Below are positions 46,506 to 48,189 of a stretch of DNA of 64,000 nt, in pieces. The notes below the pieces were generated by a model that saw nothing but the letters and a program-made list of their open reading frames with translations, was not told where the DNA came from and did not search any database. The stretch comes from Clostridia bacterium (GTDB taxonomy: Bacteria; Bacillota; Clostridia; Oscillospirales; Acutalibacteraceae): positions 33,865-97,864 of the forward strand of contig JAFQOT010000006.1 in the NCBI GenBank assembly GCA_017403065.1, written 5' to 3'. Position numbers and translations under genes: made by a program. Numbering within the stretch: the stretch's first letter is position 1; each line of letters begins with the position of its first letter.

Positions 46506-47197
46506 CTGAACATCCTCCTGAAAATTTCATCCACAGAACCGCCTTGTTCTGTACGTAGCTTGTCACACTCAGAATGAAGAATAATTTTACCGTCGTTTAT
46601 AAAAATAACATCATCTAATATACGTTCTATATCGTTTATCAGGTGGGTAGAAATAATAACGCTTGCCCCCTCGTTAAAGTTAGAAAGTATAGTGTCGAGA
46701 ATATATTCTCTCGTAGCAGGGTCGACACCCCCAAGTGGCTCATCAAGTATATAAAGGTCGGCTTTTCGACTCATAACTAAAACCAACTGCACCTTTTCTT
46801 GCATACCCTTGCTCATCTTGGCAAGCTTTTGATTAACATCAAGACCCAATTCTTCTAATAGCTTATATGCCTTTTGGCTATCAAAATTATCATAAAATTC
46901 AGCAAAATATTTTATAACCTGTGCAACCTTCATCGATTTGTCAAGGTAGGTGCGTTCAGGTAAATAAGCAATAATTTTTTTAGATTCCACGCTTGGCGAT
47001 TTGCCGTTAATCAATACTTCTCCTGATGTGGGGGTGAGCAAATCGTTTATAAGCTTTATTAGAGTTGATTTGCCCGTTCCGTTTTTACCAAGTAAGCCAA
47101 CAATCTTGCCACGAGGTATGGTCAGGTTTATATTTTCCAAAACCTTTTTAGCGCCAAAACTTTTGTTTAAATTTTTAAGTTCTAATATGGTATTCAT
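46499..47197 (-). CDS. ABC transporter ATP-binding protein
   Basis: Walker A GKNGTGKST, signature MSKGMQ, Walker B LYILDEP. Confidence 0.92.
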   Translation of the reverse strand: MNTILELKNLNKSFGAKKVLENINLTIPRGKIVGLLGKNGTGKSTLIKLINDLLTPTSGEVLINGKSPSVESKKIIAYLPERTYLDKSMKVAQVIKYFAEFYDNFDSQKAYKLLEELGLDVNQKLAKMSKGMQEKVQLVLVMSRKADLYILDEPLGGVDPATREYILDTILSNFNEGASVIISTHLINDIERILDDVIFINDGKIILHSECDKLRTEQGGSVDEIFRRMFRC

Positions 47198-47559
47198 TTG
47201 TTACCTCCCAGTTGTTCGATTTGTTTGGATATTTCTCCAAGAGAATACCCTATGTCATACATTCTTTTTAAGTAAGTAAGGGTTAATTCCTCAGCATATT
47301 TTTGCTTATAAAAATTTATCAAAGAAGTATCGTGGGTTATAAATTTACCGTTGGTGCGCTCGGTAAAAACAAGTCCCGATTCCTCTAATTCAACAAGCGC
47401 TTTTTGCATAGTGTTAGGATTAACCTTAGTTTCATTGGCAAAATCCCTAACCGACGGTAAACGTTCTCCAGGCTTAAATTTGCCCGCTACAATGTCGGTT
47501 TTGATTTGTTCCACAATTTGAATGTATATGGGTATGTTATTATTAAAGTCAAATTTCAT
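47194..47559 (-). CDS. GntR-family (YtrA-subfamily) transcriptional regulator
   Basis: Short 121-aa GntR wHTH (LPSVRDFANETKVNPNTMQKAL); first gene of the GntR-ATPase-permease operon. Confidence 0.88.
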   Translation of the reverse strand: MKFDFNNNIPIYIQIVEQIKTDIVAGKFKPGERLPSVRDFANETKVNPNTMQKALVELEESGLVFTERTNGKFITHDTSLINFYKQKYAEELTLTYLKRMYDIGYSLGEISKQIEQLGGNK

Positions 47560-47573
47560 ACAAACCTCCTTAC

Positions 47574-47622
47574 TGTATTACTAAACTAATACAATAATAC
47601 ACCGCAATAACGCCTTTGTCAA
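47574..47622 (-). promoter_or_regulatory. promoter plus palindromic operator of the ytrA-like operon
   Basis: Minus strand TTGACA (47617-47622), 17 nt, TATTAT (47594-47599), then inverted repeat TGTATTA-N6-TAATACA (47574-47593). Confidence 0.55.
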
Positions 47623-47633
47623 GAAAAATTAAA

Positions 47634-47663
47634 ATAGAGCGACATTTTGTCGCTCTATTTTTG
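47634..47663. terminator. bidirectional terminator
   Basis: atagagcgac / gtcgctctat stem flanked by an A-run and a T-run. Confidence 0.7.
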
Positions 47664-47730
47664 TTGAAAGGGTTATGTAAATTTTATGTTTCTCTAATTT
47701 TTTCTATGTGTTCGAACCCGGACATATTTA

Positions 47731-47898
47731 GTGATATTGTGCCTTTGGCACAGTGATATTTTTATTCCATAAAAGTGATATTTCTGCTAACGCAGAAGTG
47801 ATATTATATTCGCCATTAAAACTCGCGAAGCGAATATCACTTGGACGAAGTCCAAATATAACTGCGAAGCAATATAACTCGCCAAAGGCGAATATAAC
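47731..47898. repeat. array of about 8 mini-hairpins, each flanked by a conserved heptamer (GTGATAT / its complement ATATCAC / variant ATATAAC)
   Basis: GTGATATT at 47731, 47753, 47775, 47798. ATATCAC at 47834; ATATAAC at 47856, 47872, 47892. Short variable stems with 3-4-nt loops lie between them. Confidence 0.85.
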
Positions 47899-47900
47899 TA

Positions 47901-47932
47901 AAAAAGACGATTGCTTTCGCAATCGTCTTTTT
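47901..47932. terminator. bidirectional terminator-like hairpin
   Basis: aaaaagacgattgc-tttc-gcaatcgtcttttt perfect stem with flanking A/T runs. Confidence 0.7.
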
Positions 47933-48074
47933 CTTTGAAAGGGATTTTGTCTCGGTGCTGCCGCGCCTATCGCCTCGCTCGCGCTCGTTGCCACGTCGGC
48001 GAAAACAACCATTTAGGTTCTTTTCTTCCGCTTCGCTCCCTCCTTGTTCGAATCCCTTTCTCCATATAAAAATT

Positions 48075-48108
48075 AAAAAGGAACCAATCCTTTGGACTGA
48101 TTCCTTTT
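48075..48108 (-). terminator. rho-independent terminator immediately after tRNA-Arg
   Basis: Minus strand GGAATCAGTCC-AAA-GGATTGGTTCC followed by TTTTTAATTTTT. Confidence 0.7.
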
Positions 48109-48112
48109 TAAT

Positions 48113-48189
48113 TGGCACGCTGAAAGGGATTCGAACCCCCGACCCTCTGCTTAGAAGGCAGATGCTCTATCCAACTGAGCTATCAGCGC
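48113..48189 (-). tRNA. tRNA-Arg (anticodon UCU), CCA encoded
   Basis: Hand-folded cloverleaf: acceptor GCGCTGA/TCAGCGT, D-arm GCTC-AGTTGGATA-GAGC, anticodon loop CT-TCT-AA, T-arm GGGGG-TTCGAAT-CCCTT, discriminator G, CCA. Confidence 0.9.

Follow-up and report, generated by a model that had tools for sequence, protein, structure and literature searches.

A gene-less, two-armed hairpin array behind tRNA-Arg in an Acutalibacteraceae genome, probably a copy of a Gut-1 cassette linked to PF05635 genes

Membership of the array in the Gut-1 family

In the genome of a Clostridia bacterium of the family Acutalibacteraceae (GenBank assembly GCA_017403065.1), a 64,000-nucleotide (nt) stretch of contig JAFQOT010000006.1, hereafter the window, carries behind a tRNA-Arg gene an array in which a repeated 8-mer word alternates with short hairpins. 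We are confident in classifying this array as an orphan copy of a cassette in which the Rfam motif Gut-1 (RF01706) is linked to a gene of the protein family PF05635. The fuller reading, namely that it is a gene-less copy of a two-armed cassette of gut Oscillospirales whose word would be recognized by the cassette's own protein, is a proposition that we consider evenly balanced.

Four GTGATATT words lie on the plus strand at 47731, 47753, 47775 and 47798, and the mirror half carries words of the form AATATMAC: AATATCAC, the complement of GTGATATT, at 47833, and AATATAAC at 47855, 47871 and 47891. The word GTGATATT occurs 13 times in the window, compared with 2.6 expected (0/100 shuffles), and five of these occurrences fall inside the array cluster. 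By a fixed hairpin rule, all six between-word spacers are hairpins, each different from the others (GTGCC-TTT-GGCAC, TTTAT-TCC-ATAAA and TCTGC-TAAC-GCAGA on the plus strand; CGCC-TTT-GGCG, GC-TTC-GC and TGGAC-TTC-GTCCA on the minus strand). The mirrored array of mini-hairpins proposed in the initial annotation is thus real, with all eight words, the hairpin spacers and the central palindrome located where they had been described. The statement that every left-hand word is followed by a hairpin holds for the first three, whereas the fourth unit has no hairpin of its own and runs into the central palindrome. Successive words are 22, 22, 23, 22, 16 and 20 nt apart in the window (range 16-23) and 16-28 nt apart across the family; there is therefore no helical phasing, and the suggestion of iteron-like sites placed every two helical turns does not describe the array.

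Both window arms align to positions 1-77 of the 77 positions of the RF01706 model (scores in Table 1), in agreement with the earlier view that the two halves are the same module in opposite orientations. Both scores are under the gathering threshold of 50 bits. Since nine homologous sister copies in the same genome exceed this threshold (51.9-61.9 bits), and since the columns of the window A arm correspond one to one with theirs, we take the window array to be a divergent, sub-threshold copy of the Gut-1 repeat family. The arrangement, which had been thought undescribed, has thus been described in part, as one of its arms. It is also far from unique to this site. The source genome (1.24 Mb in 14 contigs, 99.6% complete) contains 39 Gut-1 matches, 9 of them above the cut-off, at about 28 loci, nearly all of which are convergent (plus, then minus) pairs about 20 nt apart; several of these two-armed loci lie at contig ends. 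Matches were found in 30 of 41 genomes (the source genome included), comprising 22 of the 24 in the genus and 7 of the 16 that represent other families of the order; a single genome has as many as 38. More than 120 species-level metagenome-assembled genomes contain an exact 29-mer of the A arm; they derive from the guts of animals and humans and bear the labels Acutalibacteraceae, Oscillospiraceae, Eubacteriales or Clostridia.

Gut-1 is known from human-gut metagenomes as a motif rated "certainly" an RNA and without known function (Weinberg et al. 2010, Genome Biol 11:R31, PMC2864571). The window array shares with it the three small hairpins joined by a conserved GUGAAAU-like linker and the occurrence in gut bacteria, and both window arms fit the model. 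The published motif, however, is a single arm without a host or function, whereas here it makes up one side of a mirror-symmetric element, about 300 bp long and ending in terminators, of which one genome has about 28 copies and which is tied to a PF05635 gene; the statistics of its stems and loops suggest DNA more than RNA. Our literature search found no paper linking Gut-1 with PF05635.

The linked PF05635 gene and the orphan copies

The source genome has exactly one PF05635 gene (C1:107314-107616; E 1e-27), which lies on contig C1 immediately downstream of the B arm of the array copy at C1:107683-107895. The last AATATCAC of this copy abuts a TTGAAA-17-TATAAT promoter, which is followed by AGAGGTGA and a TTG start codon. 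The 116-amino acid (aa) product matches TIGR02436 ("four helix bundle protein") and PDB 2RLD (E 8e-30), an entry with five chains, and carries the RxxxSxxxNxxE motif of the family (PMC3936711). The protein is probably a pentameric ring. PADLOC and PHROGs searches gave no match to it, and a homologue is encoded in 2 of 50,697 phage records.

A complete cassette consists of a start hairpin (P0), an A arm of four words, a central palindrome, a B arm of three or four hairpins with words, a promoter, and a PF05635/TIGR02436 gene encoding about 120 aa. P0 is a long hairpin that follows the upstream gene or tRNA; copies behind tRNAs have a T-run terminator in this position, and those behind protein genes a 10-12-bp stem closed by an xTAAGGx loop. 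When the copies are oriented with the conserved arm first, the A arm reads GTTATATT-CGCCnnnGGCGA-GTGATATT-GCTTCGCA-GTGATATT-variable hairpin-GTGATATT-hairpin, the centre reads AGTTTTAATGGCGAATAT, and the B arm consists of two to four units of AATATCAC plus a variable hairpin, the words of the B arm being well kept across copies. Three copies, on C4, C13 and C9, share about 95% identity across about 400 bp and have sharp boundaries, the unit extending from P0 to an inverted hairpin of the P0' type. A minority of copies carry the word ATGAAAT instead, and C8:2569-2785 is a hybrid element with ATGAAAT words in its B arm and GTGATATT words in its A arm. No second, divergent four-helix-bundle gene was found among the C8 open reading frames (ORFs) near the ATGAAAT arrays; these encode a 279-aa unknown protein, a 139-aa product that is DUF559-like by eye only, and a hydrophobic, probably membrane, protein.

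The association of the arrays with PF05635 recurs among the relatives. Across the 41 genomes, Gut-1 and PF05635 occur together in 27 and are both missing from 10, while three have Gut-1 alone (weak matches) and one has PF05635 alone; of the 16 genomes from other families, five have both, nine have neither and two have weak Gut-1 matches only. At least 14 of the listed matches are adjacent to a PF05635 gene, and the order is always A arm, B arm, gene. We fetched 60 PF05635 loci from relatives by score, 54 of which had a readable ORF. A two-armed array (at least five sites, at most 330 nt upstream) precedes 44 of these 54 genes, as opposed to 1/54 with shuffled upstream sequences and 1 in a far-upstream control, and a tRNA T-arm lies within 400 nt in 30/54. 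In the fetched loci the first word stands directly after the T run of a terminator, and in most families the last word reaches the -35 box or falls just short of it.

The word itself differs among the fetched loci, the types seen being GTKATAT, ATGAAAT, GTGAAGT, ATGAAGC, ATGATG(T), AATGAAG and GTTATGA, together with one class of inverted purine/pyrimidine tracts without hairpins. The word follows the protein clade: on a maximum-likelihood tree of the 54 proteins, word class needs 11 changes, compared with 31.6 when the labels are shuffled (0/200). The ATGAAAT protein clade has support of 96/95, the clades do not follow the boundaries of genomes or families, and several can be present in one genome. 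The upstream elements without mini-hairpins form a second PF05635-linked type, found at C5:1-140 and at loci L184, L185, L210, L211, L214 and L218-L220. They are long inverted repeats of pyrimidine-rich and purine-rich tracts (cttcacttttcac ... gtgaatagtgaag) behind tRNA terminators, and their proteins fall in separate clades.

No PF05635 gene lies directly downstream of the window B arm, where a 67-nt tail and a terminator stand instead. Because the gene is absent here while the master copy on C1 and 44 of the 54 genes of relatives have the arrangement, we treat the window copy as an orphan derivative. Arrays homologous to it occur in a congener (G021, locus L165), where the element, again behind a tRNA-Arg, has kept a PF05635 gene after its B arm. 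Seven orphans of one subfamily in the source genome can be aligned to the master copy over the whole stretch between P0 and the B arm, both included, and again over a 3' module (GGGTTTGG..CCCAAA..CATTTGTACATACAAATGCGATGCTGGTTCT), and the gap between the aligned parts is clean and equals the master's promoter and ORF. This alignment shows the orphans to correspond to the master copy minus its promoter and ORF. A 17-bp split stem (AAAATAAAAAATCGAAG ... CTTCGATTTTTTATTTT) brackets the master copy (C1:106550-107990, locus L160), the only one with the gene. Within the stem lie the arrays, the PF05635 gene and a gene for a 197-aa S-adenosylmethionine-dependent methyltransferase, the last standing before a right-end motif that the orphans have as well. 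The same pair of genes occurs in two sister species (G010 and G002), with a gene fragment in a third; since the adjacency recurs in sister species, the methyltransferase was treated as cargo.

The orphans occupy a restricted set of sites. Among 22 that could be classified, 12 lie between convergent genes, 8 lie between tandem genes with P0 facing the end of the upstream gene, 2 are tandem and reversed, and none lies between divergent genes. In at least nine of 23 orphans, perfect inverted repeats of 12 bp or more (stems of 12-16 bp) enclose the copy, preceded on the outer left by an A run and followed on the outer right by a T run; in the controls, such a length was attained by 1% of mismatched flank pairs. 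These brackets are the two halves of a split host terminator, with the orphan in its loop. The terminator-loop orphans are distributed over contigs C1, C2, C3, C9, C10, C11, C13 and C14. At the murA-MBL spacer (C14:134817-135216), the intergenic region is 400 bp in the source genome and a plain 55-110-bp terminator in most congeners with a readable spacer; the murA spacer of congener G011 has the same "taaataaaagac" leader with its hairpin intact. Considered as miniature inverted-repeat transposable elements (MITEs), the copies have inverted ends and the orphans derive by deletion from a copy with the gene; no clear target-site duplication was seen.

The window locus was found in five other assemblies of the same species, and three contigs cover the array. 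Two of them are identical to the window. In the third (L157:1-310, from a strain with single-nucleotide polymorphisms in the GntR promoter), two B-arm hairpins (window 47739-47797) are swapped for those of C5:237-331, while the words and the flanks are unchanged. This suggests cassette exchange between copies through the shared words; alternatively, an assembly chimera may be involved, because the contig starts inside the repeat.

The folded spacers and a proposed reading of the words

The spacers were assessed across the family on 382 distinct sequences taken from 134 array-bearing sequences, each scored by a fixed per-spacer rule and compared with shuffles. This test was used rather than pair counting on a MAFFT alignment of the arms, in which variable stem lengths misalign. 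Hairpins were formed by 292 of the 382 (76%), compared with a mean of 85 (22%) and a maximum of 106 after shuffling. The 1644 stem pairs are 97% Watson-Crick, so the stems vary while the pairing is kept, as the initial annotation had stated; G-T pairs (16) do not exceed A-C pairs (13) by any margin typical of wobble, and the signature of an RNA helix is therefore absent on either strand. On the strand that reads the word first, 77% of the loops begin with T and 53% end with C (TTC, TTGC, TTAC, TATC). On the opposite strand, where the hairpin precedes AATATCAC, the loops read GAA, GCAA, GTAA and GATA, and about one-third of the tetraloops are not GNRA. Loops of this form are G..A mini-loops, of which d(GCGAAGC) is the type example. 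The stem and loop statistics appear to favour folded DNA over RNA, and the arrays lie between a terminator and a promoter.

We propose that the repeated 8-mer (GTGATATT / AATATCAC) would be the recognition word of the cognate protein, in this genome the product of C1:107314-107616; a sequence-specific reader of the conserved tail, as had been suggested from the window, seems to us still the best explanation of that tail. The sequence-free hairpins may act as structural spacers that loop out and leave successive words at a fixed pitch, whatever the length of the spacer. Hairpins that set the pitch in this way would explain why the spacers are free in length and yet keep their palindromy. The folded form would more likely be DNA, either single-stranded or extruded, than RNA. 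The cassette as a whole may be a selfish element, resembling the intervening sequences (IVSs) of 23S rRNA genes, that lodges in or just behind terminator hairpins, where it would do little harm. The window copy, standing between two terminators behind tRNA-Arg, would be a relic or a decoy binding site, with at most a side role as a bidirectional stop for transcription.

Several observations weigh against parts of this proposal. Insertion into the loop of a host hairpin, of the 23S-IVS type, was seen in at least nine sister orphans, but the window copy, a member of the other, tRNA-linked class, has no split stem and is flanked by complete terminators on both sides. For the window locus no empty site could be identified: the gene order downstream of metA is not preserved among 24 congeners, and the same-species contigs are all occupied. 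Nor was an empty site found for two recent sister copies, for which the same-species contigs likewise all carry the element. By a count from its sequence, the PF05635 protein is approximately charge-neutral, unlike the basic Avd protein of diversity-generating retroelements (DGRs), and four words per arm, rather than five, fit a pentamer poorly. Physical linkage alone would produce the same match between word and clade as would a pair of reader and site. A correlation between residue and base (the residue after EAxYA being Q with TGAT and H with TGAA, in 32/36) was not significant, because it comprises only two independent contrasts. The words of the A arm are degenerate at positions 3-5 (GTTTTATT, GTTCTATT), and three ATGAAAT-word loci (C8:2569-2785; C3:38799; C8:1-215, the last overlapping the end of C10) are without a cognate gene in the source genome. 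Finally, the Rfam curators rate Gut-1 as certainly an RNA (PMC2864571).

The last point leads to the alternative that survives best, although we consider it unlikely: that Gut-1 acts as RNA, each arm being transcribed inward by read-through from the flanking gene and serving, as a noncoding RNA of three to four hairpins or as an element of the 3' untranslated region, as a stabiliser, a terminator or a protein sponge. The published rating derives from covariation (PMC2864571). Both arms face inward, and a transcript arriving from either side would read a word and then a hairpin; the placement of 12 of the 22 classifiable orphans between convergent genes, and of none between divergent genes, would suit such transcripts. 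A single strand of the element folds far better than shuffles do (z = -9), and many loops on the word-first strand are UUCG-like. Against this stand the lack of any G-U excess over A-C among the 1644 stem pairs and a loop bias that fits G..A loops on the opposite strand, including the non-GNRA loops GATA, GTTA and GTCA. Moreover, because the arrays start directly behind the T run of a terminator and end at a promoter, they lie in a poorly transcribed gap. For the window copy, read-through from tRNA-Arg, which had been offered as the source of a structured RNA, is unlikely because two strong intrinsic terminators lie before the array and a third lies after it. As words in single-stranded RNA, furthermore, the two arms would read as different sequences.

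A somewhat less probable alternative dispenses with a protein reader altogether. The element would be a hierarchical palindrome, or foldback MITE, in which the A-arm and B-arm words pair with one another and rejoin the split host terminator, the words having arisen by duplication of a module. Minimum-free-energy folds of the whole element do pair the arms, the arms usually match each other in word number (4 and 4), and for the orphans in terminator loops, of which there are at least nine, a re-closed stem would keep the terminator working. Pairing between arms, however, requires no identity among the four words of one arm, and the A-arm words are degenerate exactly where the B-arm words are not; 3/4 of the window word pairs have a mismatch, and the outer pairs of the master copy have two. 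Foldback also gives no account of the fixed place of the last B-arm word relative to the -35 box of the linked gene, or of a word type that is constant over whole protein clades spanning different families.

We consider it improbable that the words are operator or iteron sites on double-stranded DNA, bound as 8-bp duplexes by the four-helix-bundle protein or by a host factor, with spacers that are palindromic only incidentally. Inverted groups of sites upstream of a promoter, the last of them touching the -35 box, in DNA that is not transcribed, are what such operators would look like. With a spacing of 16-28 bp, however, the sites are not on one face of the helix; duplex binding leaves unexplained both the hairpins in 76% of spacers (22% by chance) and their strand-biased stable loops; and in 27 of the genome's 28 copies there is no promoter on which a regulator could act. 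Iterons of a replication origin were rejected, as the spacing is not constant, there is no rep gene nearby and the genome holds 28 copies.

Least probable of all is a repetitive extragenic palindromic (REP) or bacterial interspersed mosaic element (BIME) moved by an HUH enzyme, be it a REP-associated tyrosine transposase (RAYT), a Y1 transposase of the IS200 type, or a relaxase acting at an oriT-like hairpin: although the repeat is a multi-copy intergenic hairpin with a conserved tail, as the initial annotation recognized, although its DNA-type GNA loops suggest a single-stranded DNA form, and although the genome has one IS200 tnpA, the genome has no RAYT, and its Y1 gene does not track the repeat. 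The search for RAYT and IS200-IS605 TnpA genes that had been advised gives one Y1 gene in the source genome (C4:115-585), with a score of 150.6 bits for the IS200 model and of 34.5 for the RAYT model (cut-off 80); it has no arrays beside it on C4. It belongs to a single, plain IS200 copy at the contig end (C4:1-700, L009), which encodes a 156-aa TnpA and has its own flanking hairpins, ccacccgcatagcgggtgg and accacgcgactatcgcgtggt, unrelated to the arrays. Among the relatives, array-rich genomes are without Y1 genes (G027 with 34 matches, G036 with 29 and G008 with 16), and two Y1-bearing genomes are without arrays. Nor is the repeat a REP unit, that is, one sequence-conserved palindrome with a GTAG-type 5' tail: there are 382 distinct spacers, the stems are sequence-free and the tail is a clade-variable 8-mer. 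The end hairpin of one subfamily contains AAGTGCGCC, which we take to be the core of a MOBQ nick site; the word is not conserved, since its stem covaries in other subfamilies, and the window copy does not have that end hairpin. Searches of the source genome detected no reverse transcriptase, rve, DDE_Tnp_1, MobA/MobL or Relaxase domain; the enzymes of this kind that are present are IS200, two Xer-like tyrosine recombinases and small serine recombinases.

Layout of the window copy and related systems

The window element extends from the terminator at 47631-47661 to that at 47900-47933 and is thus larger than first described. On the minus strand, which is the orientation of the element, the order is tRNA-Arg, its terminator, a GC-rich spacer, P0, A arm, centre, B arm, the 67-nt tail, a closing hairpin (P0') and the promoter of a GntR-ABC operon (Table 1). 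The genes neighbouring the array are tRNA-Arg, metA, a GntR regulator and an ABC transporter.

Table 1. Coordinates in the window of the array element and of the features next to it
Feature	Position	Strand	Evidence
tRNA-Arg (anticodon TCT), upstream gene in the element's orientation	48113..48189	-	ARAGORN; Rfam tRNA 68.8 bits
Intrinsic terminator of tRNA-Arg, 20-pair stem then T run	48071..48113	-	Terminator scan
GC-rich spacer module, about 130 nt	47934..48070	-	Within-genome BLAST; sequence
P0, perfect bidirectional terminator hairpin (A run, 15-pair stem, T run)	47900..47933	-	Terminator scan
A arm	47829..47899	-	Rfam Gut-1 match 47829-47900 (-), 42.0 bits, E 3.7e-7, model 1-77; aligned with 20 sister A arms
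Central imperfect palindrome (ATATTCGCC ATTAAAACT CGCGAAGCGAATAT; ATATTCGC...GCGAATAT), where the arms meet	47806..47832	.	Sequence
B arm, four perfect GTGATATT on the plus strand (AATATCAC on the element's strand)	47729..47805	+	Rfam Gut-1 match 47729-47809 (+), 45.5 bits, E 4.6e-8; word positions
Tail module, 67 nt, no gene	47662..47728	-	Comparison with sister copies; within-genome BLAST
P0', second bidirectional terminator hairpin, closing the element	47631..47661	-	Terminator scan
GntR-ABC operon promoter TTGACA-17-TATTAT, outside the element, boundary marker	47594..47622	-	Pfam on neighbour genes

The perfect terminator hairpin that the initial annotation placed at the end of the array is P0; it directly abuts the first A-arm word, and a terminator or long hairpin occupies the same position in all sister copies. 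The A-arm words on the minus strand are GTTATATT, GTTATATT, GTTATATT and GTGATATT, and the A-arm hairpins are the three minus-strand hairpins given above followed by CGC-TTCG-CG. In the predicted fold the centre lies at the apex, and sister copies retain it as AGTTTTAATGGCGAATAT. The tail module occupies the position at which complete copies have the promoter and the PF05635 gene; a within-genome homology search with it yielded nothing informative, the module being unique except for short motifs common to other tRNA-linked orphans.

The GC-rich module at 47934-48070 probably lies outside the array element. An inverted 15-nt copy of the 3' end of tRNA-Arg is found at 48046-48060, where the module begins, and 70 nt of the module are repeated with 91% identity after another tRNA and its terminator (C14:125696-125765); on C14 the inverted copy matches that contig's own tRNA instead. 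A weak match to the Rfam ylbH leader covers 47994-48112 on the minus strand (32.5 bits, cut-off 50). On the other side of the element, the GntR-family gene (47194-47559, minus strand) has a perfect inverted repeat, GTATTAGTTTAGTAATAC, at 47571-47588, between its -10 box and its ribosome-binding site; this repeat is likely to be an autoregulatory operator.

Among known systems, the IVSs of 23S rRNA genes that carry an S23p/PF05635 ORF occur in Leptospira and Coxiella, with excision by RNase III shown for Coxiella (Warrier et al. 2016, PMC4990558). They share with the cassette the protein family, a selfish appearance with paired ends in the apical loop of a host hairpin, the association with stable-RNA genes and an ORF prone to decay or loss. 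In the present family, however, the host hairpin is a terminator or the region behind a tRNA rather than helix 25 or 45, and the window copy is without the ORF; a 23S rRNA location was accordingly rejected for this copy, which is intergenic behind tRNA-Arg. We know of no word-and-hairpin arrays in classical IVSs.

The second relative by protein is Avd of the Bordetella phage BPP-1 DGR, a homologous four-helix bundle. Avd is a pentamer of PF05635-like fold that binds a structured nucleic acid encoded beside its own gene (PMC10053308). The source genome differs in having no reverse transcriptase, template repeat or variable repeat, and the protein here is not basic. A DGR context was rejected because no RVT_1 match was obtained in a genome that is 99.6% complete; in the absence of a reverse transcriptase from the genome, the PF05635 protein is not a DGR Avd.

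REP and BIME sequences, and REPINs with their RAYTs, are short multi-copy intergenic palindromes of Enterobacteria and Pseudomonas that have a conserved tail, often occur as inverted pairs and lie at the 3' ends of genes. The unit of a REP is a single hairpin with a sequence-conserved stem, and its partner is a Y1 HUH enzyme. The cassette differs from them in its sequence-free stems, its modules in groups of 4 + 4, the absence of a RAYT, and a linked gene that encodes a non-enzymatic four-helix bundle. The modular repeats and MITEs of Firmicutes include BOX (A-Bn-C), RUP and SPRITE of Streptococcus pneumoniae, and elements that target hairpins include IS1397, in REP loops, and class C group II introns, behind terminators. 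The cassette resembles these in its modular build, the variable number of its modules, its gene-less derivatives, its strong predicted structure and its landing sites in host hairpins. In contrast to them, it has no transposase or reverse transcriptase available in this genome and no clear target-site duplication, and they do not have one short word alternating with sequence-free hairpins in mirrored arms.

We suggest, tentatively and as a possibility that we ourselves doubt, that the PF05635 ring and the mirrored array form an unrecognized protein-nucleic acid system, in which a non-enzymatic protein would read a programmable word of 7-8 nt on looped-out DNA hairpins and thereby mark or move a selfish cassette that homes to host hairpin loops (terminators here, 23S rRNA helices in classical IVSs). 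Gut-1 has been in Rfam since 2010 as one arm only, with no host or function, and the 23S-IVS family has been without a function outside DGR Avd for about 30 years. If true, the system would explain the Gut-1 motif (2010) and the IVS protein family (1990s) together. The source genome offers an unusually clean case, with one PF05635 gene, about 27 orphan arrays mostly of its word type, no reverse transcriptase and essentially no transposases. As regards annotation, such arrays should not be labelled small RNA genes, CRISPR-like arrays or origins. If the protein does bind (hairpin + AATATCAC)n, the family would provide a natural set of small proteins with differing specificities for short words, as well as a new kind of mobile element hidden within terminator hairpins.

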